Below the pieces are notes generated by a model. It was given only the letters and a program-made list of their open reading frames with translations, did not search any database and was not told the DNA's origin. The position numbers and the translations under genes are program-made. Source: a virus (Duplodnaviria; Heunggongvirae; Uroviricota; Caudoviricetes). From it: DNA of 13,439 nt. The DNA is taken from positions 1-13,439 of the IMG/VR virus record IMGVR_UViG_3300029653_000151. One strand, written 5' to 3'. Each line of letters starts with the position of its first letter. Positions within the stretch are counted from its first letter, which is position 1. Below, in pieces: positions 413-13,439 of this stretch.

Positions 413-499
413 AACATTTAAGCTGATGACCACCACGCTTTTTATTGACCATTTTGCACGCAAACTGGAAAACCTGGCGTCGTCATCTATTCTTAAAGA

Positions 500-602
500 G
501 CAAGGCAACTAAGCCTGCATTAATGCCAACTTTTAGCGCACGGCTCTCTCCCAAGAGCCATTTCCCTGGACCGAATACAGGAATCGTATTCGGTCTTTTT
601 TT
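500..602 (+). ncRNA. sdsR: SdsR (RyeB)-like small RNA, about 103 nt, ending in an intrinsic terminator
   Basis: Sequence gcaaggcaactaagcctgcattaatgccaactttta...ccaagagcc...ggaccgaatacaggaatcgtattcggtcttttttt matches my recollection of enterobacterial SdsR; a sigma-S-type -10 (ctattct, 486-492) lies 7 nt upstream; a 10-bp perfect hairpin plus T8 run at 569-602 forms the 3' end. No protein-coding signal. Confidence 0.55.
569..602 (+). terminator. Rho-independent terminator (10-bp perfect stem gaccgaatac / gtattcggtc, 7-nt loop, T8 tail)
   Basis: Perfect inverted repeat 569-578 / 586-595 followed by ctttttttt (595-602). Confidence 0.8.
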
Positions 603-733
603 AATTGTATTTAAAATCAATCAGTTGCAAACGTCTTCCCGAAATTCCCCGAAATTTACTCGAATTTCTGTATTCCGGTCTTTTTTGGTTATATCACAAC
701 CAAAATACATTTAACAATCCATTTACGTTAAAA
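603..733. other. Candidate prophage attachment region (attL side), between the sRNA terminator and the integrase stop
   Basis: Integrase 3' end abuts this interval, as attP abuts int in lambda; it holds tandem cgaaatt-type direct repeats (about 640-668) and a partial copy of the SdsR terminator arm (gtattccggtctttttt, 663-679). The exact core cannot be set without the other prophage end. Confidence 0.3.
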
Positions 734-2057: not shown

Positions 2058-2163
2058 TGCCATACCTCTTACGATATGACCGCCAGTAAATATACAGAAT
2101 ACTGGCGGATGTGGTTGATTTTTAATAATCAGCTATGAAGTTCTAATTTGTATATAATGCAAC

Positions 2164-2352
2164 TCACGAGGACAGAAGTTTCTCGCAATTAAAATTTATC
2201 AGCTTTACTTTCTGCTCTCTGGAAACGCCTGCTTCTTTTTTTCCTGAGAGCATTTTTTCGCATTCTGATTTCGTTAATTTAGATTTTGAATATCTTGTCC
2301 AGTTAGTAGGAGTGCCACCTTCCTTTTCAATAGTGGCAGTAATTTTATACAT
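2164..2352 (-). CDS. Small hypothetical protein (62 aa) in the position of Rac ydaC/rcbA
   Basis: ORF with GGAGG 5 nt upstream of the ATG at 2352; occupies the slot between xis and ralR. Identity is by position only; alternative starts at 2364 and 2424. Confidence 0.45.
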   Translation of the reverse strand: MYKITATIEKEGGTPTNWTRYSKSKLTKSECEKMLSGKKEAGVSREQKVKLINFNCEKLLSS

Positions 2353-2539
2353 GAACACCTCCATTATTATTTCCAGTAGTTCGTTTATTCCATCTTTCGA
2401 GTGCTTCTTTTTCACTTCCACCATAGCCAGTTCGGGATTCGCATCCGTTGCATTTTGCCCGGTAATATCCTGAAATTGCTTTCACCGTAACAGATGGACA
2501 ACCACAAAACGGACATGGTTTAACATCGTCATATCTCAT
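2345..2539 (-). CDS. ralR: RalR/Lar restriction-alleviation protein (64 aa), zinc-ribbon (CPFCG..CNGC); reported toxin of the RalR/RalA type I toxin-antitoxin pair
   Basis: MRYDDVKPCPFCGCPSVTVKAISGYYRAKCNGCESRTGYGGSEKEALERWNKRTTGNNNGGVHV matches my recollection of K-12 RalR, including its 64-aa length. In-frame upstream ATGs at 2551 and 2578 are alternatives. Confidence 0.8.
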   Translation of the reverse strand: MRYDDVKPCPFCGCPSVTVKAISGYYRAKCNGCESRTGYGGSEKEALERWNKRTTGNNNGGVHV

Positions 2540-2595
2540 AATTTTTGTCATAAAAACTGTCTCACGTTGGCGGTGCATTACACCGCCAGGCTGAA

Positions 2596-3405
2596 TTATT
2601 CTTCTGAATTATCGATTACACTGTATTCCCCGGTTAATACAGAGGAGTCTGCCGGATCGATTGTCAGTGGTTCCTTTTCATCCATTGATACTGCACGCTG
2701 GATTTCAATTGAGACAGGCAGGTATTTAAACAGGCGACGAATAGCCGTTTTTTTTGCCATTTCTTCCCAGTGAGTTACCCATGGCCCGTTATTACCAGCC
2801 TTACTCTGGCTGCGCACCAGTTCAATCTGTTTGCGCGTCATAACTTCAAACTGAGTCCCTCCGTCTTTCAGTCTTGCGACAGCATAGACGTGGGTCACTG
2901 GTGCATCTTCGTTTTCTCCCGGGCGGTGTATTAACTTTTCATCAAGGCCAAATTCAAAACTAAACTCGTCACCTTCACGGACAACACGGGCTGACAGGCT
3001 GGCGATTTGACCAGAACGGCGAGCCAGATCAATCATGCCGCGATAACCAATGATTAGCTGAACGTTCTTTTTACCGCTCTTTTCGTTTTTATTACCAAAA
3101 GGCAGTAAATATGCGTGGCCGAGGGCGCTACCTGGCTCAAGGCCGAGCTGTGAACACTGAACGATCGCACTGACAAAACTCATGGTGTCACAGTTTCCTA
3201 GCGCCGGAACCTTACGAATTTCTGTGGTGGCGATACGTATCATTCGTTCAGCCGTCATATGGCGTGGGAGAGCTGCTGCCAGTTGCTCTTTCATTGATGG
3301 CTGATTAATAAAGCTGATCACGTCGTTATTTTTTACTGCTGCTGGTGCACGGTTTCCCTGGGTTTTTTGCAGATCGGCTTTTGCGATAGGTGGTTGCTTA
3401 GTCAT
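2596..3405 (-). CDS. recT: RecT single-strand annealing recombinase (269 aa)
   Basis: [36 protein letters not shown]... matches recalled Rac RecT throughout; start chosen at the MTKQ ATG (3405), which overlaps the recE 3' end. Confidence 0.92.
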
Positions 3406-6074
3406 TTGCATACTCCTTAGCCCAGCGGGGCAGTGATAACGTTTTAATAGCTGGCCATTCATCGGTATTCAGGCAGTCAGCCAGGGTCCTCAGATTGCGG
3501 TGATATTCCTGCTGGCCTGCCAGTTTTGCTTCTTCGCCCATCATGAAAATCTCAACCGGGTAACGTCCGCATTCAACAGTTGTGCTGGCAACCAGAAAAA
3601 CGAAAGTTGGCAGCACACCAAACTGTGCTTCATAACCGTCACTGTAGAATGCATCCTGAACGTGATAGCGGTAGTCGTAATAAGCCGTTTTGAATCGTTG
3701 AATATCCGCTGTGGTTTTCACGTCCATGATCCAGTGAAATTCAGGGATAATTTTGTCCGGACGGCACCGACACAAAATTCCTGTTTCAGGATCTTCCCAG
3801 TAAATTGATGATTCAGCGTGTCCGGCGCTTTCAACAAGCCATTGACCCAGCGGCAAAGCCATAACGCTCTGATACATGAGTTCAATTTTCCGGCCTTCTT
3901 CGGCAGTGATAACCGTTTTTCCTGTGCTTGCGCATTCCATCAGAAACGCTTTCTCCTCTTCTTTTCCGGCGGTTGTACGGCGGTTAAATTCAGGTGCCAC
4001 GATAAAGCGGTTACTGAATTCTTCCGGTTCAAGTACACGGCAGTGGAAAGCGGTTCCTAAATCGAGCGTTTTTGTCTTTGTGGTGTCCACTGGGGGCATT
4101 TTTACGCCACAAATACAGAGCCGGAGTATCAGCAATGTCGTCGAGCTGAGACTTACTGACACCGGGACCCGCGTGGTAATTCTCATTCGAAATTCCGTAA
4201 TAAATACCAGGCTCTATGTCTCCTGCGATTACGGGATCTGCGACTTCGCCAGTTTCATCACTGCAATCGCGATGCGGATCGCTGCCAGCATTCTCATTGT
4301 GCGGATGTTCAGGGCCTTCCATTTCCTCCGGATCTTTTTCCTGAGATTCATCCAGATTTTCTTCATTAAAGGTTTCCTGATATGTGGTGTCGCCCATCAC
4401 CGCGCCACAATCAGGGCAGTTGCCGCCACCGCTCTGACCGCGGGCGGCACAGACTTTTTCCGGTTCCTGTTGCGCTACTGGTTCAGATTGTTTCGTTTCT
4501 GGCTCATTTTTCTGTGCATTTTGGCTGTTTTGTTCCGCTTTCTGGTTGTTTTGTTCCGATTTGGGCTGGTTCTGGTTCACAGAATCTCGGGTTTCAATTC
4601 CCTTAACCCATTTCGGATCATTCGGGTCGCTAATCCCTTCAACAAATTCTCCGCGAGAGGCAGCCAGTAATTTGTCTGCATCGACAGGATTTTTGGGCGG
4701 AATGTTTTTCCGGGCTTCATAGAGTTCTGCCCGCAGTTTCTGATATTTCGCATCAACAGAATTTACCTGTGACTGAGCATCCAGCGGCTGCGTGTCCTGA
4801 TGATGTTCAGTTGCATCCGGTTCCACTGTTTCAGCCGTTGCCTGTTCATCTGCCATTGCGCAAGATGGTTGCAGTTTTTCTTCATCATCCTGTTTTTCTT
4901 CTTCTGTTACACGCTGCGGCATCGGGGCAGAGGAACGACCGCAGGCAATATCCACGATTTCTGGATCAGGGTTGGCATGATCAGTTTCAGTCAGTACTTT
5001 GTTAAGATATTCAGTGACGTGTGCGGGGATAACCTCGATCCCAATTGGTGCTTCTTTTACGGACGCAACCACGATGGCGCGGGAATAATCCAGCCCGCCA
5101 GGCATGGTGATGAATTTGTCGCGGAAAACAGAAAAGGGCGGTTTATTTTCAGCGATAATTTCCTCGACACGTTTAGCGTGTGCCGGATGAAGGTTATAAA
5201 TGTCCACGTCCATTGAACGAGCCAGTACGCCAGTGGCTACGTCGCGCGCCAGTGACGTCAGATCGTGAATGAAACCTTCGCCGCGATCGGTGAGGTTCCC
5301 GCCGCCAGCATTAGCGCCGGAAGCCGTGCGCGTGATGCGTGAAACACGATTTCCTTTCATCCACTCTTTTGTCAGCAGACCGCGATCGGTGTAGTCTGCG
5401 TCCAGGTATGCTTCGAAAAAAGCAGTCATCAGCCCCAGGCTTGAATTGCCTGGATTAGGGAAAACTCTGTCAGTATCACGCACCAGTTTGTGGAGATCGC
5501 GAATTTCCAGCGGGTCGAGCAGGCTGGTTTTGTGGGAAACAGCCAGGGCAGTAACGGCTGGTAGTTCTTCAGCTCGTGCAATGTGTAATGCCTGTAGTTC
5601 GTTGCGTGAAACGTGCGTTACCGGTTTTTCGCTGCCGTGTTGAGCAAGCCAGCGAATGGGCAGCTCCTGACCGGAAATCGGGAGTAGCATATTCTCCTCA
5701 ATCTCCGTCATGTCTTCGCCATTAACATTGGTATTGTCAGTGCTGGCTGGCTTGTCCTGCGCAGAGGATGAGGGCGCGATAAATACCATTGTGATGCCAT
5801 CTTCCCCGCCTTTTTCGTAACGGTTGCAGAATTCCGTATCAAATACGCCTTCTGGTGGAAGGTCATCAACAACGGGCAAATTGACGCGAACAGGTTTTTT
5901 AAAGTCATCTTCATCGTAGCCAGCATCGTCAATCGCAACAGCACCACGGGAGATGGCAATGGATAATTTTTTCGCTTCAGCCCAGTAGAAACCGCCTTTA
6001 ATACCGAGACGTTTTCTTACTTTGTCATTTTTTGCTTCGTAATACAGTGGGTAAACTTGTTTATCGGTGCTCAT
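3398..6074 (-). pseudogene. recE: recE (exonuclease VIII) split by a frameshift into a 681-aa N-terminal ORF (4029-6074) and a C-terminal nuclease-domain ORF (3398-4186)
   Basis: Two minus-strand ORFs in different frames overlap by 158 bp and together read as one RecE. The upstream frame reaches ...[10 protein letters not shown] then runs into nonsense and a stop; the downstream frame continues [19 protein letters not shown]... through the PD-(D/E)xK motif (RPDK...IMDVKT) to ...WAKEYAND. The switch sits at a G5 run (plus 4092-4096). Confidence 0.75.
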
Positions 6075-6143
6075 TGCTTTTTAACCTCAACTCAGATTAA
6101 AATTAATGCGAGTGATGAATAAATGTCCCAGGTTCTTCACTCA

Positions 6144-6174
6144 GGCCTGCACAGTGTGCAGGCTTTCTTTTTTT
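6144..6174 (+). terminator. Plus-strand-oriented intrinsic terminator-like hairpin (gcctgcac agt gtgcaggc, then tttcttttttt)
   Basis: 8-bp perfect stem 6145-6152 / 6156-6163 followed by an 11-nt T-rich run on the plus strand only; no plus-strand gene lies upstream. Confidence 0.5.
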
Positions 6175-6180
6175 CAGATT

Positions 6181-6450
6181 TCACCTTTTAATTTCATTGC
6201 AATCAGAGTTGCCAGAAATTCGGCTTTTTTTTTCTGCGGGCAGATTCTTTCCTATGTGCACCAGACACATTTTTTTAACACCATCGTTAAGTGTTTTAAC
6301 GTTGCCTGATGGACCGTCGATATCAACCACAGTGAATGGGGTTTCTTTATTTTCTGTCTTAATCACGTAGCCAATACGCTTTCCTTCCAGGGTAACTTCG
6401 TGAACAATGTCATCAGTAGTAACAACAGTGGCTTCATAACTGGTAATCAT
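6181..6450 (-). CDS. racC: RacC-like protein (89 aa)
   Basis: MITSYEATVVTTDDIVHEVTLEGKRIGYVIKTENKETPFTVVDIDGPSGNVKTLNDGVKKMCLVHIGKNLPAEKK... matches recalled Rac RacC; AAGGAG 6 nt upstream of the ATG at 6450. Confidence 0.75.
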   Translation of the reverse strand: MITSYEATVVTTDDIVHEVTLEGKRIGYVIKTENKETPFTVVDIDGPSGNVKTLNDGVKKMCLVHIGKNLPAEKKSRISGNSDCNEIKR

Positions 6451-6524
6451 GTTTTTCTCCTTAATTAAGGTTGAGCGAATCCCTGCCATTGCTGGCATAA
6501 ATTCAGTTTCGGATAGTCAGTTAA

Positions 6525-6695
6525 TTAAAGTTCGTGTGCCATCTGGTCTTTTTCGGCACAGATTTCACTACAATATTTTTTCATTTCCGTCGTTGGTATA
6601 ACTCCACGCATGAAATGAAGTGGTCTTGTAATGATTTTGCTTTCTTCAATTTCTTTATTGCAAAGGTGATAAGCACATTTTATTTTCTTAGTCAT
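6525..6695 (-). CDS. ydaE: YdaE-like small cysteine-rich protein (56 aa), below the size cut-off of the supplied ORF track
   Basis: Hand-translated minus strand: [56 protein letters not shown], stop TAA at 6525-6527. Its ATG overlaps the kilR stop (TAATG), indicating translational coupling. Confidence 0.7.
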   Translation of the reverse strand: MTKKIKCAYHLCNKEIEESKIITRPLHFMRGVIPTTEMKKYCSEICAEKDQMAHEL

Positions 6696-6916
6696 TACCA
6701 TGACTCCGCCTTTACAGGTAAACCATCACGACCGAGGAAGACTTTAATCATGCAGTCAGAAATGCATGTTTTTGTAGTCAGGCTACGAATATAAAGTTTT
6801 CGCTTTTTAATATTGTTTGCCGAGGCGATATATGTCCGACCTTCATGAAGAACATAATCGCCAGGGGTCACACACTGACGTGGTATTTCATCAGTTCCGA
6901 AGTGATGAGCAATCAT
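6695..6916 (-). CDS. kilR: KilR cell-division inhibitor (73 aa)
   Basis: [73 protein letters not shown] matches recalled Rac KilR; GGAG 6 nt upstream of the ATG at 6916. Confidence 0.8.
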
Positions 6917-7324
6917 AATTATCTCCATTTTTACAAATGAATTTTGTCGATGCGGTGCCTGGTGCCTCCAGGTGACGTTAACCAGTTAACAATTAACGCC
7001 GGATAATCCACCCATAACACTGATGCTTTTAACTGTGCCGCGTGCGCTTAGCCGCATTCACTGCATCACAAAATTCACTTTAAAAAGGGGCGGCAGGGCA
7101 GCCACGGAGTAGAACTGATGCCGCCAAAGACTACACATAGCAATGTCGTTATTTACAACCGGAGGCGCACTCCCACCATTTAAATTTAACAGACAAGAAC
7201 GACTCTTTATGGATATCGGAAATGCGCCTTCGTGTTGTGCCCGGTTTTATTTCACCACCTCCGGGCTTTGGTGGTTTCTGCTATACCCCTACAGCGAGAA
7301 TATTGAATTAATCCAAATAATGGA

Positions 7325-7477
7325 TTAGCAAGTATTTCTGGCAAGCCAGCGACGTGCGCCAGCTTCGGTTTTAAACGTTTTGCTTTTGGTATACGTCATG
7401 GCGGTGAATGTGCCGTCCTGATTGGGAAACACGCCACATACCAGAGATTCGTTGTTGCCAAGATCGATAGTATCCAT
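7325..7477 (-). CDS. Small Rac-type protein (50 aa), YdaG/YdaF-like
   Basis: MDTIDLGNNESLVCGVFPNQDGTFTAMTYTKSKTFKTEAGARRWLARNTC; GAGG 5 nt upstream of the ATG at 7477; first ORF downstream of the PL-like promoter. I cannot say from memory whether it is ydaF or ydaG. Confidence 0.5.
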   Translation of the reverse strand: MDTIDLGNNESLVCGVFPNQDGTFTAMTYTKSKTFKTEAGARRWLARNTC

Positions 7478-7659
7478 GTTGACCTCATTTCCCCTTAACG
7501 CCGGGTGGCGGAACGTTTTATCTACTGCGCTTTGTATCAATCAACAACTGCCGTCATGTTCGTATGCCTCAGGCTGGCTACTTAGCCCTGTTCAGTGGCT
7601 GGATAACTCGAGGTATTGTCCTGCCGTTCTCTGGTGGGGCGTTGTTTGGATATGCTTAT

Positions 7660-7710
7660 TAAACACAATACGTTTTCTTGTGTCAACACGGAATGTGTTT
7701 TGTGGTGGGT
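7660..7710 (-). promoter_or_regulatory. PL-like leftward early promoter with overlapping operator-like palindromes
   Basis: On the minus strand: -35 TTGACA (plus 7691-7696), 17-nt spacer, -10 TTTAAT (plus 7668-7673). Overlapped by inverted repeats acacaa-N9-ttgtgt (7673-7696) and aacac-N5-gtgtt (7695-7709) that resemble the palindrome between racR and ydaS. Confidence 0.5.
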
Positions 7711-7736
7711 GTCATATGATGATGGTACAAAAAAGC

Positions 7737-7759
7737 CCGCTGATAGCGGGCTGATTGGC
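7737..7759 (-). terminator. Rho-independent terminator downstream of racR
   Basis: Minus strand reads GCCCGC-tatca-GCGGGC followed by TTTTTT (plus: aaaaaa 7737-7742, gcccgc 7743-7748, tgata, gcgggc 7754-7759), 24 bp after the racR stop. Confidence 0.75.
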
Positions 7760-7782
7760 ATATTACTGTGATAGCAAGATCA

Positions 7783-8202
7783 TTACTCCGGTGGGGGATT
7801 ATCTTTAAGCCTGCCTCTCAAATATTTTTCTACATACTCATCGATTTCTTTTAGCCGGACTTCAAATAGCTCAATCATTCGTTGTTGTTCTGAGCCCGGT
7901 AGCTGGTTAAACAACTCAAGAAGTTTTCGTTGGGATTCATTTAACCACAATTCAGAAGATTCCTGTTCTCCAAAGAGGAGCTCAGGAGGAGATATGCCAA
8001 GTGCCTTTCCCAATATGACAGCGTCATGCACTCCAACATTTCTGCTGCCCGCCTCATAGTTACCTATACGCGATTGCGTCCATCCGCAGATTTCAGCAAG
8101 TTTTCCTTGAGATAAACCAAGCTTCTGCCTGCGCTCTTTAAGACGCATTGCAATTTTGTCATTGAGCCTACTAGCGGCAATTTTTTCGTTTTCTTTTTCC
8201 AT
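7783..8202 (-). CDS. racR: RacR-like XRE/cI-family prophage repressor (139 aa)
   Basis: N-terminal helix-turn-helix (LSQGKLAEICGWTQSRIGNYEAG); divergent from the cro-like ydaS across an operator-bearing intergenic region. Shorter than the 158 aa I recall for K-12 RacR, so allelic identity is uncertain. Confidence 0.7.
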   Translation of the reverse strand: MEKENEKIAASRLNDKIAMRLKERRQKLGLSQGKLAEICGWTQSRIGNYEAGSRNVGVHDAVILGKALGISPPELLFGEQESSELWLNESQRKLLELFNQLPGSEQQRMIELFEVRLKEIDEYVEKYLRGRLKDNPPPE

Positions 8203-8298
8203 TGCATCCTTGTATCACGAATCGTGATTTACATAAAACACAAAATAGCTTGACCATATAACACAAGGTGTGTTTAAAATTGTCATCGGAGGTTTTCA
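8203..8298. promoter_or_regulatory. Divergent promoter/operator region between racR and ydaS
   Basis: Perfect 15-bp palindrome atcacga-a-tcgtgat (8214-8228); second palindrome aacaca-agg-tgtgtt (8260-8274); -35-like TTGACC (8250-8255) and AT-rich -10-like taaaat (8275-8280); GGAGG 6 nt before the ydaS ATG. Confidence 0.6.
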
Positions 8299-8541
8299 AT
8301 GAACAAAATTTCAACATATCGAAAACAGCTTGGGCTGTCTCAAAGACAACTTGCTGTTCAGTTAGGGTGGATACAAAGCCGACTGGCAAATTACGAAGCA
8401 AATTTTCGTACCCCTGGACTAGAGGAGTGCAGAAAAATTGTTTCTACCCTTAATCGGCTTGGCGCTCATTGTGGACTTGACGATGTATTCCCCCCAGACG
8501 GTAAGCATAGCGAAAACAGCATAGGAGCGGTTGATTCATGA
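8299..8541 (+). CDS. ydaS: Cro-like helix-turn-helix protein (80 aa), YdaS-like
   Basis: HTH segment LGLSQRQLAVQLGWIQSRLANYEA; divergent from the repressor; stop overlaps the ydaT start (ATGA). Confidence 0.7.
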   Translation: MNKISTYRKQLGLSQRQLAVQLGWIQSRLANYEANFRTPGLEECRKIVSTLNRLGAHCGLDDVFPPDGKHSENSIGAVDS

Positions 8542-8963
8542 AAATCAGGCATAAGCACATCGAATCAGTGTTGTTAGCCCTGGCAGCCGAAAAAGGGCAG
8601 GCGTGGGTCGCTAACGCAATTACTGAAGAATATCTGCGCCAGGGGGGGGGCGGCGAATTGCCCCTTATACCAGGCAAGGACTGGAACAATCAGCAGAATA
8701 TCTATCACCGTTGGTTGAAAGGTGAAACGAAAGCGCAAAGGGAAAAAATTCAGAAACTGATCCCTGCGGTTCTGGCAATTCTTCCGCGCGAGCTGCGTCA
8801 CCGACTCTGCATCTTCGATACCCTGGAACGCCGTGCATTACTGGCGGCGCAGGAAGCGTTGAGTACGGCAATTGATGCGCATGATGATGCAGTCCAGGCC
8901 GTTTACCGGAAAGCACATTTCAGCGGTGGTGGGTCGCCCGGCGATTCTGTCGTAGTGCATTGA
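8538..8963 (+). CDS. ydaT: YdaT-like protein (141 aa)
   Basis: Position directly after ydaS with ATGA overlap; length matches the roughly 140 aa I recall for K-12 YdaT. Contains a G9 homopolymer (8642-8650) encoding Gly-Gly-Gly-Gly. Confidence 0.65.
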   Translation: MKIRHKHIESVLLALAAEKGQAWVANAITEEYLRQGGGGELPLIPGKDWNNQQNIYHRWLKGETKAQREKIQKLIPAVLAILPRELRHRLCIFDTLERRALLAAQEALSTAIDAHDDAVQAVYRKAHFSGGGSPGDSVVVH

Positions 8964-9007
8964 TTGAAATTAATCGTGCCGGATTGTTTTGTTCGGTATC
9001 AGTTAAA

Positions 9008-9426
9008 TGTAACGACGCGAGCGTTACAAGGTGAAAACAAATGGCTTCAAACTGGATAAAGCTCGAGGTTATTACGCCGGATAAGCCGGAAATATTCAGG
9101 CTTGCTGAGATTCTGAATATTGATCCAGATGCCGCATTAGGGAAGGTTATTCGCTTCTGGGCATGGGCGGATCAACAAATGATAGACGGTAATGCAGATT
9201 GTAACGCTCGCGGCGTTACAAAAAGTGCAATAGATCGCATCACTTTTATGGCTGGTTTTGCTGATGCGTTAATTCAGGTTGGATGGCTGGTCGAAAATGA
9301 CGTTGGGCTTTCTCTACCTAACTTTGAACGTCATAACGGAAAAAGCTCAAAAAAACGGGCGGTTACAAACGAGCGAGTTACAAAAATACGCGAACTGAAA
9401 CGAAAGGGTAACGCTGCCAGCGTTAC
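9008..9426. repeat. Cluster of gtaacg-N7-cgttac palindromes and gttaca half-sites: candidate origin iterons or regulator binding sites
   Basis: tgtaacg-acgcgag-cgttaca (9008-9028, upstream of the ydaU ATG); ttgtaacg-ctcgcgg-cgttacaa (9199-9221); direct half-sites gttacaaacgagcgagttaca (9362-9382); gtaacg-ctgccag-cgttac (9408-9426). Sites 1 and 2 are the same 21-mer in opposite orientation with one mismatch. Confidence 0.5.
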
Positions 9427-9829
9427 ACAAACGGATCAAAAAGCGTTACCAGAGGAAGAGGAAGAGGAAGATATAAATACTGATCTCCCCCTAAATCCCC
9501 CTCGCCAAAAACGAGCGTCTAAAAAATTCGAGCCGGAGGCTATCGAGCTGCCTGACTGGTTGCCGGAAACACTCTGGCATGAGTGGGTTCAGTTCAGGCA
9601 GGCATTGCGAAAACCGATTCGAACGGAGCAGGGCGCTAACGGGGCGATACGGGAACTGGAAAAATTCCGTCAGCAGGGTTTTACACCTGAGCAGGTGATT
9701 CGACACAGCATCGCCAATGAATACCAGGGCTTGTTCGCACCGAAAGGTGTTCGGCCTGAGACGTTGCTCCGACAGGTTAACACCGTCTCGTTGCCGGACA
9801 GTGCGATCCCGCCAGGCTTCAGGGGGTAA
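9041..9829 (+). CDS. ydaU: Phage replication initiation protein, lambda O-like / YdaU-like (262 aa)
   Basis: Sits directly upstream of a DnaC-like loader as in O-P type modules; carries internal palindromic repeats and an acidic EEEEEED stretch. Confidence 0.65.
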   Translation: MASNWIKLEVITPDKPEIFRLAEILNIDPDAALGKVIRFWAWADQQMIDGNADCNARGVTKSAIDRITFMAGFADALIQVGWLVENDVGLSLPNFERHNGKSSKKRAVTNERVTKIRELKRKGNAASVTQTDQKALPEEEEEEDINTDLPLNPPRQKRASKKFEPEAIELPDWLPETLWHEWVQFRQALRKPIRTEQGANGAIRELEKFRQQGFTPEQVIRHSIANEYQGLFAPKGVRPETLLRQVNTVSLPDSAIPPGFRG

Positions 9830-10604: not shown

Positions 10605-11366
10605 ATGGAGACTGTTTTTGACGCACTGAAAGCAATGGGAAAAGCCACGTCGGTAGAACTGGCTGCGCGACTTGATATCAGTCGTGAAGAGGTACTGAAC
10701 GAGCTGTGGGAACTGAAAAAGGCTGGTTTCGTTGATAAAAGCGTATACACCTGGCGTGTGGCTGATAACAACGTTCAGCAGGAACAGCCAGCGCCAGAAG
10801 AACAGCCGGAAGAAACCACCACGGCGACAGTAGCGAAAATCTCAGAGTGCGATTTAACCGCAACGATTGAACAACGCGGACCACAAACGGCGGATGAACT
10901 GGCTACGTTTTTCGGCATCACATCACGCAAAGTGGCTTCAACGCTGGCAATGGCAATCAGCAAAGGGCGTCTGATTCGCGTGAATCAGGGCGGTAAATTT
11001 CGTTACTGCATACCGGGTGCTGATTTACCGGCAGAGCCGGAAGCTGCATCCGTAGCGGAAACCGATGGTAAAGCCTTTCCTCAGCCAGCAGGTGTTGCGT
11101 TACCAGTACAGGAAATGATGGCACAGGAAGAAATGAAAACAGAAATCGTGGAAGACATTGTGAGGTTACAGCCATCGATCACCGAAATGAAAGCAGATGA
11201 CCTGATTCTACCATCGCTGCATGTGGCTAACCGCGAGCTGCGCCGGGCGAAAAGTGATGTCCAGAAGTGGGAGCGAGTCTGTGCTGCGCTGCGGGAGCTG
11301 AACAAGCACCGGGATATTGTTCGACAGATTACTGATTCTTCCCGCCGTGTTGTATCGGAAAAGTGA
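10605..11366 (+). CDS. Hypothetical phage protein (253 aa) with two winged-helix-like segments, an acidic linker and a C-terminal coiled-coil-like tail
   Basis: GGAGG 7 nt upstream of the ATG at 10605; segments [30 protein letters not shown] and [32 protein letters not shown] look like winged-helix DNA-binding units. Possibly the intact counterpart of ydaW; not verified. Confidence 0.55.
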
Positions 11367-12859: not shown

Positions 12860-12982
12860 TTAAATTTAGCTCTGTTAAAAATTTAATCCTTAACCGGAGG
12901 GATTTCTGCACCCTCAGAACATCAGGAGGCCGTCCGAAAGGGCGGTAGTGAAATGCGAAAATTCAAAATAATTATTGAAACG

Positions 12983-13439
12983 TAGACTGGCCCCCTGAAT
13001 CTCCAGACAACCAATATCACTTATTTAAGTGATAGTCTTAATACTAGTTTTTAGACTAGTCATTGGAGAACAGATGATTGATGTCTTAGGGCCGGAGAAA
13101 CGCAGACGGCGTACCACACAGGAAAAGATCGCAATTGTTCAGCAGAGCTTTGAACCGGGGATGACGGTCTCCCTCGTTGCCCGGCAACATGGTGTAGCAG
13201 CCAGCCAGTTATTTCTCTGGCGTAAGCAATACCAGGAAGGAAGTCTTACTGCTGTCGCCGCCGGAGAACAGGTTGTTCCTGCCTCTGAACTTGCTGCCGC
13301 CATGAAGCAGATTAAAGAACTCCAGCGCCTGCTCGGCAAGAAAACGATGGAAAATGAACTCCTCAAAGAAGCCGTTGAATATGGACGGGCAAAAAAGTGG
13401 ATAGCGCACGCGCCCTTATTGCCCGGGGATGGGGAGTAA
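12983..13439 (+). mobile_element. IS2 (IS3 family) insertion sequence, partial: terminal inverted repeat, leader and orfA; the rest lies beyond the window
   Basis: Starts with tagactggccccctgaatctccagacaaccaatatcac..., which I recognise as an IS2 terminus; followed by the InsC ORF. IS2 is about 1.3 kb, so it runs past the window end. Confidence 0.85.
13074..13439 (+). CDS. insC: IS2 OrfA (InsC) transposase DNA-binding subunit, 121 aa
   Basis: [58 protein letters not shown]... matches recalled IS2 InsC; stop TAA at 13437-13439. The frameshift-fused OrfAB would continue beyond the window. Confidence 0.85.

Follow-up and report, generated by a model that had tools for sequence, protein, structure and literature searches.

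The window analysed here, a 13,439-nucleotide stretch of a tailed-phage record (IMG/VR IMGVR_UViG_3300029653_000151), covers part of an E. coli prophage in which a repressor gene diverges from a cro-like gene followed by ydaT, with operator palindromes between the divergent genes (Table 1). The cro-like gene and ydaT overlap by ATGA at 8538-8541. This architecture, the three open reading frames, the overlap and two of the palindromes all lie where the initial annotation had placed them; to these we add a leftward operator and promoter, a middle operator and two YdaT boxes. Homology to the Rac prophage of K-12 stops at 7642 and restarts at 8532, with no K-12 DNA match over 7642-8531, and we therefore conclude that an immunity cassette of 890 bp was exchanged here. 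On either side the identity to K-12 Rac is 84-93%, bar 7490-7641 at 76%. Only ydaT matches K-12 Rac; the repressor, the operators and the cro-like gene make up a DicA-type immunity cassette. Of 5426 complete E. coli genomes, 153 (about 3%) carry it as a single unit, among them O157:H7, O145, O111, O103 and O55 strains.

Table 1. Genes, predicted regulatory sites and RNA features discussed in the text, in window coordinates
Feature	Position	Strand	Details
Second YdaT box	2115..2132	.	TTGATTTTTAATAATCAG; between xis/int and the RalA sRNA gene
RalA sRNA	2168-2346		
Leftward early promoter with operators (P_L/O_L analogue), predicted	7658..7699	-	TTGACA 7686 to 7681, 17-nt spacer, TTTAAT 7663 to 7658
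Weaker leftward site	7662-7676	-	AACACAATACGTTTT; 23 bp from the strong site
Strong leftward operator	7685-7699	-	AACACGGAATGTGTT; third CACRNNNYGTG match in the window
Intrinsic terminator of the repressor transcript	7734..7752	-	8-bp GC-rich stem, then T run; terminator scan
Repressor ORF	7783-8202	-	139 aa
Predicted repressor maintenance promoter, extended -10 (P_RM analogue)	8209..8217	-	TG 8217-8216, TACAAG 8214 to 8209
Repressor-proximal operator (O_R3 analogue)	8214..8228	.	ATCACGAATCGTGAT; ATCACGA-A-TCGTGAT, perfect 7-nt arms
Putative middle operator (O_R2 analogue)	8237..8251	.	AACACAAAATAGCTT; left half-site alone good
Rightward early promoter (P_R analogue), predicted	8250..8278	+	TTGACC, 17-nt spacer, TTTAAA; read from sequence
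O_R1 analogue in rightward promoter spacer	8260..8274	.	AACACAAGGTGTGTT; AACACA-AGG-TGTGTT, perfect 6-nt arms
cro-like ORF	8299-8541	+	80 aa
Predicted -10 of YdaT-dependent establishment promoter (P_RE analogue)	8504..8509	-	TATGCT; predicted start near 8497
YdaT box	8531..8548	.	TTGATTCATGAAAATCAG; spans the ydaT start codon; one mismatch to TTGATT-N6-AATCAA
ydaT ORF	8538-8963	+	141 aa

The repressor carries a Pfam HTH_3 domain (E 1.6e-13, residues 21-75), which is followed in its AF2 model (pLDDT 86.8) by a C-terminal helical hairpin, with helices at 89-99 and 103-133. Pfam detects no S24/LexA-type cleavage domain, and in the model the hairpin is all that follows the HTH. Over residues 14-135, that is, full length, the protein is 29% identical to DicA of prophage Qin (E 3e-15), and the NCBIfam DicA model aligns positions 4-131 of its 135 to it with 57 bits, below the cutoff of 101; it classes as DicA-like, and not as DicA proper. 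The cI protein of mEp213 is 57% identical in the N-terminal half, a match that ends at residue 80, and full-length relatives of 122-143 aa occur across the Enterobacterales. A Foldseek search of the model against the PDB matched the HTH domain only and gave no specific fold relative for the C-terminal hairpin; a SinR-like two-domain layout aligned at high rmsd. The terminator behind the repressor gene folds as RNA at -17.1 kcal/mol (z = -2.97).

For the cro-like protein, Pfam returns only generic HTH families (HTH_3, HTH_19, HTH_31), but the Cro proteins of VT1-Sakai and mEpX1 are 54% identical to it, and it matches PDB 28tn_A (E 8e-15). Its HTH is 45% identical to that of the repressor (E 2e-10), and the two recognition helices are nearly alike (GWIQSRLANYEA in the cro-like protein, GWTQSRIGNYEA in the repressor), so the cro-like protein should read the operators of the repressor and share them with it. 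BLASTP found no similarity between the cro-like protein and DicC.

The initial annotation had named the three genes racR, ydaS and ydaT, noting that the first two products are shorter than those of K-12, for which it gave the correct lengths of 158 aa for RacR and 98 aa for YdaS (YdaT of K-12 has 140 aa). Of these names only ydaT stands. Against K-12 RacR, BLASTP gives the repressor nothing beyond a chance alignment (11/36, E = 2.4), and the cro-like protein does not align with K-12 YdaS at E ≤ 100. Neither ORF can be extended to the K-12 length, because each starts at the first start codon after a stop; near-identity to the K-12 proteins after a reassessment of starts, an outcome that would have overturned the initial annotation, is ruled out for both, and its guess of a distinct immunity type was right.

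YdaT is 93% identical to K-12 YdaT and, as in the K-12 Rac module, its gene follows the cro-like gene of a Rac-like prophage. It belongs to PF06254 and to PHROG 163, the CII-like activators (E 2e-35), matches PDB 3c4r and 8bt1, and conserves the H-R-W residues with which the K-12 protein contacts DNA (residues from PMC11879457). By homology, then, it is a CII-like activator with a POU-type HTH and a tetramerising helix. YdaT has been described as a DNA-binding activator with defined boxes (PMC9986795, PMC11879457). The box consensus, TTGATT-N6-AATCAA, comes from CP-933P (PMC9986795), and the K-12 equivalent of the box over the ydaT start codon, ATGATTCATGAAAATCAA, is footprinted by YdaT and needed for activation (PMC11879457).

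The intergenic region between the divergent genes measures 96 bp, and its three operators are centred at 8221, 8244 and 8267, that is, at -19, -42 and -65 relative to A8202. The repressor-proximal palindrome lies 11 nt from the repressor ATG, and its centre lies 19 bp from that ATG. The palindrome at 8260-8274, which shows one mismatch when read as 7-1-7, falls between the -35 TTGACC (8250-8255) and the -10 TTTAAA (8273-8278) of the rightward promoter. Midway, with its centre 23 bp from both neighbours, we infer a third functional operator at 8237-8251: a repeat search found a direct repeat underlying it (CATAAAACACAA / CATATAACACAA, 23-bp spacing), and its half-site TTTTGTGTTTT is kept in the Salmonella relative. 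The short palindromes themselves, which the repeat search did not report, were located by eye and by pattern search. Their common form is NNCAC-N5-GTGNN, and the core CACRNNNYGTG occurs three times in the window against 0.78 expected.

In loci of Citrobacter, Aeromonas, Salmonella, Serratia and Klebsiella and in a record named Actinobacillus phage pPE4, which are six of the seven relatives that belong to other genera, operator-type palindromes stand at matching positions, one about 19 bp and another about 65-69 bp away from the ATG of the repressor, and a third about 85-120 bp past its stop. The repressor-proximal palindrome is at 19-20 bp in five of the seven, and also in pAEv1818 if an upstream ATG is used. 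The Yersinia relative has no such palindromes, and the right arm of its repressor-proximal site alone remains. Among the relatives, the flanking bases of the operators covary across both arms (AACACA..TGTGTT, TTCACA..CGTGAA, GACACA..TGTGTC). We take the palindromes to be real operators.

The proposed promoters were placed by conservation across the relatives. A generic promoter scan, which requires A2 and T6 in the -10, returned none of them; the rightward promoter is absent from it because its -10 lacks both. For that promoter a start is predicted near 8285, with a Shine-Dalgarno GGAGG at 8289-8293, and a -35 TTGAC/TTGAT and a T(T/C)TAAT-like -10 are kept in Chris1 and pAEv1818. Only 6 nt separate the -10 predicted for the repressor from the ATG, so that the mRNA would begin at A8202 and have no leader. 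The arrangement of GTG-n-TAnnnn, 6 nt and ATG recurs in six of the eight family members, the gap being 7 and 9 nt in the other two. Reasoning from the mRNAs of lambda cI and PaaR2, which have no leader (PMC8630535), we consider the repressor mRNA probably leaderless too, although AAGGA, 4 nt before the repressor ATG, is a possible Shine-Dalgarno and speaks against this. Both TTTAAA and TACAAG are weak -10 matches. The predicted divergent starts are about 83 bp apart.

As in lambdoid switches, where a divergent HTH repressor/Cro pair with spaced palindromic operators over both promoters is joined by a second operator set on the leftward early promoter, such a set is found here at 7658-7699 and is kept in relatives: in Salmonella, Serratia, Chris1 and pAEv1818 the operator is likewise fused to TTGAC(A/T), a 17-18-nt spacer and TTTAAT, TTTAAA or TAATAT. 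The leftward operon begins with a DUF1391 gene and continues with a DicF-like sRNA, kilR, racC, recET and more. An N/nut system is not apparent in the window.

Taken together, we hold it to be very probable that this region is the lysis/lysogeny (immunity) switch of a Rac-like lambdoid prophage located beside yebY, with a specificity unlike that of K-12 Rac. We suggest that the DicA-type repressor would bind the 15-bp palindromes, as a dimer or higher oligomer, at three intergenic sites spaced by 23 bp and at one or two more, at least, on the leftward promoter, past its own terminator. Bound there, it would silence the rightward promoter, keeping the cro-like gene, ydaT and the replication genes off, and the leftward promoter, keeping off the DUF1391 gene, the DicF-like sRNA, kilR, racC, recET and others. 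The operator next to the repressor ATG overlaps the repressor's own -10, an arrangement that would bring about negative autoregulation, and this operator would also be the first target of the Cro-like protein. On infection or derepression YdaT, the CII analogue, would bind the box over its own start codon and activate a promoter lying 20-21 bp from it, whose transcript would run antisense across the cro-like gene and into that of the repressor; a second probable target is the box upstream of xis/int.

The repressor has no self-cleavage domain, and induction would therefore most likely proceed through an antirepressor, the route demonstrated for DicA and for Gifsy repressors, rather than through RecA-stimulated cleavage. 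Repression by DicA, which has no RecA cleavage site, is lifted by the antirepressor Rem, and such proteins may be supplied in trans by other prophages (PMC10448788). In a full-length prophage with identical regulators, the gene at the rem position, next to hokD, showed no BLASTP similarity to Rem, no antirepressor was found, and no LexA box was seen by eye upstream of that gene.

How this switch relates to known systems can be read from four comparisons. With racR-ydaS-ydaT of K-12 it shares its position in a largely homologous prophage, the divergent layout, ydaT itself, a YdaT box over the start codon and a second one upstream of xis/int. In contrast, neither the repressor nor the cro-like protein is related in sequence to its K-12 counterpart, and the operators differ, K-12 having a longer intergenic region with four RacR operators and three promoters (PMC11879457). 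Moreover, ydaS and ydaT are 22 bp apart in K-12, whereas the genes overlap here; sieB is absent here, and the N-terminal half of YdaU differs. With DicA and the Gifsy repressors the repressor shares its short length, an HTH with a C-terminal helical domain and the lack of a RecA cleavage domain, and the leftward operon, opening with a DUF1391 gene and carrying a DicF-family sRNA, has a dicBF-like character. What separates it from DicA-DicC, besides an identity that falls below the NCBIfam cutoff, are a Cro partner unrelated to DicC, the failure to find a Rem-like antirepressor, and operators of the CAC-N5-GTG type where the dicA-dicC region has TTAG/CTAA-type palindromes.

Further parallels in organisation are with CP-933P and lambda. 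In CP-933P, PaaR2, YdaS and YdaT have been shown experimentally to act as CI, Cro and CII (PMC8630535), and the same type of circuit is proposed here, with a YdaT-family activator, the TTGATT-N6-AATCAA box where ydaS meets ydaT, evenly spaced palindromes in an intergenic region of 96-97 bp, and a leaderless repressor mRNA, which is shown there and predicted here (PMC8630535, PMC9986795). Unlike the present locus, CP-933P has a paaA2-parE2 toxin-antitoxin pair behind the repressor; the YdaT proteins are only about 30% identical, and the operator sequences differ. The likeness to lambda lies in three operators at 23-bp spacing, with centres about -19, -42 and -65 from the repressor start, and in the distance between the divergent promoters. 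In lambda the divergent starts are 82 bp apart and O_R2 lies at -42. As in lambda, an activator made from the rightward transcript would activate a promoter pointing backwards and, probably, that of int as well. The differences are that the repressor here is without the S24 cleavage domain, and that the part of CII would be played by an unrelated POU-type tetramer reading an inverted, and not a direct, repeat.

It could be argued that these are the genes and sites of a recently active phage, whose switch no longer works in a decaying prophage copy. The copy may indeed be decaying: recE is split by a frameshift (an extra G) relative to an otherwise 99.9%-identical prophage, and at the right end identity to the intact prophage extends to 12982 and an IS transposase gene starts at 13029. 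Nevertheless, we find an inert remnant unlikely, as the three regulator ORFs, the operators, the hexamers of both promoters, the terminator and the boxes are all intact, and the regulators and sites show 100% identity to their counterparts in a full-length prophage that carries lysis, head and tail genes. Furthermore, should leftward transcription still yield kilR and the DicF-like RNA, a repressor that silences them stays under selection even in a defective prophage, as seen for RacR and DicA.

The initial annotation had leaned towards a toxin-antitoxin-like unit, in which the repressor mainly restrains two toxic proteins and its loss kills through YdaS and YdaT. In K-12, racR is essential, and ydaS and ydaT are toxic if derepressed or overexpressed (PMC5700377, PMC5700373); RefSeq labels the ydaT product here "toxin YdaT family protein", and with 93% identity to the K-12 protein some YdaT-linked toxicity on derepression is plausible. 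However, the toxin-antitoxin label has been disputed in print even for K-12 (PMC5917428), YdaS and YdaT of CP-933P have been shown to form no toxin-antitoxin pair (PMC8630535), and the Rac and CP-933P papers treat the trio as CI/Cro/CII analogues (PMC5917428, PMC8630535, PMC11879457). At the present locus, moreover, two of the supposed partners are not homologues of RacR and YdaS, all three proteins are HTH DNA-binding regulators, YdaT being an activator with defined boxes (PMC9986795, PMC11879457), and the leftward operon, apparently controlled by the repressor, offers in its DicF-like sRNA and kilR, known division inhibitors, an alternative source of lethality. We accordingly give this explanation little credence, and consider the locus best read as a lambda-like CI/Cro/CII switch with an immunity type of its own. 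Finally, that these are true racR and ydaS orthologues, short through mis-chosen starts or truncation, may be suggested by where, and in which orientation, they lie in a prophage that along most of its length matches Rac at 84-93% identity, but it is refuted by the BLASTP results and the gap in DNA homology over 7642-8531, the ORFs being already maximal and matched by full-length relatives of similar size across the Enterobacterales.

On the repressor-sense strand, a TAnnnT hexamer lies 20-21 nt from the YdaT box in all seven contexts that differ in sequence downstream of it, against a background probability of 0.02 for each. The second box, which is also present in K-12 (L001 2504-2521), is flanked on each side, at exactly 20 nt, by a -10-like hexamer, TATATT (2094 to 2089) towards xis and TATAAT (2153-2158) towards RalA, and we infer that it is a P_I analogue. 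Two further candidates, at 8960-8977 (2 mismatches) and 10971-10988, were dropped as within chance, 1.35 being expected at ≤ 2 mismatches. The relatives with longer YdaT-family proteins (Chris1, pAEv1818, Salmonella and Klebsiella L009) have no box match at ≤ 2 mismatches and were therefore excluded from the geometry test; those proteins presumably read a different site.

We tentatively propose that YdaT may be a class-II-type activator working from a fixed position, both at the repressor-establishment promoter, which would lie just within the cro-like gene, and at the xis/int-ralA box of Rac-like prophages, with a palindromic box centred about -41.5 to -42.5 from the start and the -10 lying 20-21 bp beyond. 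The published assignments are different: in K-12 the YdaT-dependent promoter is placed elsewhere, at PracR4, about 190 bp from the box (PMC11879457), and for CP-933P the box has been reported to lie downstream of the proposed promoter's start or over it (PMC9986795). If our proposal is right, the YdaT-dependent promoter of K-12 Rac would adjoin the box (-10 TATGAT), and YdaT would couple repressor establishment to integrase/excisionase expression, much as lambda CII does, which would account for the reported rise of xisR/intR and the excision of Rac after RacR depletion. The xis/int-ralA box had previously gone unremarked, and this geometry would supply a concrete mechanism for a coupling between RacR loss and Rac excision that has been published but not explained.

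Annotators of Rac-like prophages can easily name the genes in this place racR and ydaS and label ydaT a toxin. The present analysis corrects that habit, in that two of the three genes are unrelated to their K-12 namesakes and the unit is a phage immunity switch; carriers of the cassette should be neither immune to nor cross-regulated by K-12-type Rac elements. As to how such cassettes are exchanged, both YdaT boxes lie exactly at mosaic junctions (8531/8532 and 2114/2115), which suggests that they may double as crossover points for the exchange of immunity and integration modules.

The window holds a Rac-like lambdoid prophage integrated next to yebY, with a gene order of yebY (partial), int, xis, ralR/RalA, recT, recE, racC, ydaE, kilR and a DUF1391 gene, to the right of which come the repressor/cro-like/ydaT region, ydaU/ydaV-type replication genes and more early genes. 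A full-length prophage of E. coli AF3, which retains lysis, head and tail genes, is 99.9% identical to it across 12,982 bases. DNA matches to K-12 Rac cover positions 2114-7641 in four separate blocks, mostly at 84-93% identity, the last of them (7490-7641) at 76%; there is then zero match to K-12 Rac DNA over 7642-8531, and the match restarts at 8532 and extends to 8961. With homology on either side, this stretch of 890 bp is an exchanged block. It is a classical lambdoid immunity cassette, holding the repressor and cro-like genes, the operators between them, and the predicted leftward promoter with its operator. Of 5426 complete E. coli genomes, 153 carry the cassette (coverage of at least 80%), every copy being chromosomal and 95-100% identical; matches containing ydaT occur in 1509 genomes. 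The locus is most probably a heteroimmune version of a kind of system that is well understood, itself uncharacterised and ordinary in design.

The initial annotation had named the three genes racR, ydaS and ydaT and suggested a distinct immunity type. Its reading frames, the ATGA overlap and the K-12 lengths it gave (RacR 158 aa, YdaS 98 aa) agree with our ORF calls and with K-12 MG1655. The naming holds for ydaT, whose product is 93% identical to K-12 YdaT by protein comparison with MG1655, but not for the other two: the repressor aligns with K-12 RacR only by chance (E = 2.4), and the cro-like protein gives no alignment with K-12 YdaS. Nor does near-identity emerge when the starts are re-assessed; each ORF was called from the earliest start codon that follows a stop, so the 139- and 80-aa frames cannot be extended to 158 and 98 aa. 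With an immunity block that has no K-12 DNA match, and a repressor and cro-like protein unlike RacR and YdaS, the suggestion of a distinct immunity type is borne out.

The repressor is a full-length homolog of DicA (29% identity, residues 14-135, E 3e-15), the repressor of prophage Qin, which lacks a RecA cleavage site (PMC10448788). The NCBIfam DicA model aligns with it end to end but, at 57 bits, falls below the cutoff of 101. The DNA-binding domain of mEp213 cI matches the N-terminal half of the repressor at 57% identity, up to residue 80. Pfam detects no S24 peptidase domain; the AlphaFold2 model (pLDDT 86.8) consists of an HTH domain and a helical hairpin (helices 89-99 and 103-133), and a structure search with it matched the HTH part and nothing else. 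Across the Enterobacterales, relatives 122-143 aa long are frequent and bear generic names only. The cro-like protein is 54% identical to Cro of VT1-Sakai and of mEpX1 and matches PDB 28tn_A (E 8e-15). Its HTH is 45% identical to that of the repressor, with almost the same recognition helix, as expected if both proteins read the same operators.

Both palindromes reported in the initial annotation are present, and they share the core CAC-N5-GTG. A pattern search for CACRNNNYGTG returns three copies in the window against 0.78 expected, and the third, beyond the repressor terminator, continues on the minus strand into what we infer to be the leftward early promoter, with a weaker site in the promoter spacer, 23 bp from this operator. 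When a half-site between the two palindromes is included, the three intergenic sites have centers exactly 23 bp apart. We compared seven relatives (the pPE4, Citrobacter phage Chris1, Aeromonas phage pAEv1818, Salmonella, Serratia, Klebsiella and Yersinia loci), whose repressors are 57-83% identical to that of the window. Six of these loci carry palindromes of this type at distances of about 19 bp and 65-69 bp from the repressor ATG, and a further one 84-118 bp past the repressor stop. The exception is Yersinia, where no palindrome is complete and the proximal site keeps nothing but its right arm. Among these relatives the outer operator bases covary, changing on both arms together, which is good comparative evidence that the sites would bind symmetric dimers.

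The right arm of the proximal operator (GTG), the next base and TAnnnn make up an extended -10 in each of the eight family members. In six of them exactly 6 nt separate it from the ATG, an arrangement that predicts a leaderless repressor mRNA. Leaderless translation has been shown for PaaR2 and was likened there to lambda cI (PMC8630535). AAGGA, 4 nt before the repressor ATG, is a possible Shine-Dalgarno sequence, which leaves the leaderless reading uncertain. With a start at A8202, the operator centers would fall at -19, -42 and -65, about 83 bp separating this start from the predicted rightward one. In lambda the P_RM and P_R starts are 82 bp apart and O_R2 lies at -42.

Features of the window (coordinates on the window; strand in brackets where given)
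Feature	Position	Sequence or size	Remark
SraC/RyeA and SdsR/RyeB, host sRNA pair	462-606		directly between yebY and the integrase end of the prophage
Second YdaT box	2115-2132	one mismatch	between xis/int and the RalA sRNA gene
recE, two overlapping ORFs	4029-6074 (-) and 3398-4186 (-)		
G run in recE	4092-4096	one extra G	
DicF-family sRNA	7088-7139 (-)		Rfam RF00039, 60.9 bits
Predicted leftward promoter	7686->7658 (-)	TTGACA-17-TTTAAT	
Third operator	7685-7699	AACACGGAATGTGTT	
Repressor terminator	7734-7752		
Repressor gene	7783-8202 (-)	139 aa	
Proximal palindrome	8214-8228	ATCACGA-A-TCGTGAT	perfect; 11 nt from the repressor ATG
Half-site	within 8237-8251	AACACAA	
Distal palindrome	8260-8274	AACACA-AGG-TGTGTT	6-nt arms perfect; between TTGACC (8250-8255) and TTTAAA (8273-8278)
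Predicted rightward start	~8285		
cro-like gene	8299-8541 (+)	80 aa	
YdaT box	8531-8548	TTGATTCATGAAAATCAG	over the ydaT ATG, exactly where K-12 homology restarts
ydaT	8538-8963 (+)	141 aa	overlaps the cro-like gene by ATGA, 8538-8541
G run in ydaT	8642-8650	nine G	
ydaU, N-terminal half	8962-9467		
Segment with probable insertion sequence	12983-13439		ORF from 13029

YdaT of CP-933P and K-12 Rac is a tetrameric activator with the site TTGATT-N6-AATCAA, and in K-12 a box over the ydaT start codon has been footprinted and is required for leftward transcription towards racR to be activated 29-fold (PMC9986795, PMC11879457). This box and a second one are present in the window, where 0.12 boxes with one mismatch are expected; the second coincides exactly with a mosaic junction to K-12 Rac, and K-12 has the same box (2504-2521 of its Rac locus), there too at a homology boundary. 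On the repressor-sense strand a TAnnnT hexamer follows 20 or 21 nt past the box in seven contexts with unrelated intervening sequences, against a background chance of 0.02 per context: at the ydaT box in the window (TATGCT), K-12 (TATGAT), Serratia (TACTCT), phage Tritos (TAGTTT) and Klebsiella phage ST405-OXA48phi1.2 (TAGCAT; a sequence with three mismatches to the consensus, read by eye and outside the list of boxes with at most two), and on the xis side in the window (TATATT) and K-12 (TAACAT). Such spacing would put the box center near -42, as with a class II activator, and we hypothesize that a YdaT-dependent promoter adjoins the box. The published K-12 promoter PracR4, however, is ~190 bp from the box and disagrees with a box-adjacent promoter.

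On its other side, the second box has TATAAT exactly 20 nt away, in agreement with the RalA 5' end; -10-like hexamers thus stand exactly 20 nt off on both sides, and the box may serve the xis-side promoter, the RalA promoter or both. It is possibly a P_I analog coupling YdaT to integrase/excisionase expression. Expression of xisR/intR rises about 100-fold when RacR is lowered (PMC11014345), and the Rac literature searched makes no mention of a box near these genes.

The toxin-antitoxin-like behavior that the initial annotation attributed to the K-12 trio is indeed so reported, YdaS and YdaT having been called toxins (PMC5700377, PMC5700373), but the label has been challenged from genetic context (PMC5917428), and later CP-933P and Rac experiments favor CI/Cro/CII roles (PMC8630535, PMC11879457). 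In the window, the same repressor also appears to keep in check a leftward operon that carries a DicF-family sRNA and kilR, which would place two cell-division inhibitors under the predicted leftward promoter; lethality of repressor loss, if any, therefore need not stem from the cro-like protein or YdaT. The sRNA lies between the DUF1391 gene and kilR, in a region homologous to the K-12 stretch annotated kilS. DicA and the Gifsy repressors have no RecA cleavage site; small antirepressors, Rem among them, relieve their repression (PMC10448788). Since the repressor here is built in the same way, induction through a small antirepressor is our best guess by analogy. No antirepressor was found, the AF3 gene beside hokD (the rem position in Qin) being unrelated to Rem.

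The position of the SraC/RyeA and SdsR/RyeB pair indicates that the attachment site adjoins these sRNA genes. Relative to the otherwise 99.9% identical AF3 prophage, an extra G splits recE, either as a pseudogene or through a sequencing error. K-12 Rac has sieB (superinfection exclusion), whereas the window has no counterpart (7300-7660, compared with 7627-8465 of the K-12 locus) and passes almost directly from kilR-side homology to the DUF1391 gene. Only the C-terminal 124 residues of the YdaU replication initiator are common with K-12 YdaU (81% identity); the N-terminal half is a different module, presumably origin-binding, and marks a second mosaic exchange immediately right of ydaT. AF3 identity ends at 12982 and the next ORF resembles, by the look of its product, an IS-family transposase OrfA, so that the early-right region of this strain is probably interrupted by an insertion sequence. 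The G run inside ydaT, which codes for consecutive Gly residues, exceeds that of K-12 by 3 nt (protein GGGG versus GGG). Among the near-identical matches in E. coli, several have 3 nt less overall. The run falls within what has been described as the long variable loop of the YdaT HTH, and a slip of +/-1 in the tract would inactivate ydaT.

In a few genomes and in the record PP818812.1 ("Actinobacillus phage vB_Apl-pPE4", 2176-2905), an identical cro-like gene goes together with a repressor that shares only 63% identity with that of the window and with different outer operator bases. The record, whose cro-like gene encodes the same protein as the window's, also has ydaT, kil and recE of the E. 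coli Rac type, and by its looks pPE4 is a Rac-like phage of enterobacteria, not one of Actinobacillus. It offers a natural test case for the importance of operator flanks to one identical Cro.
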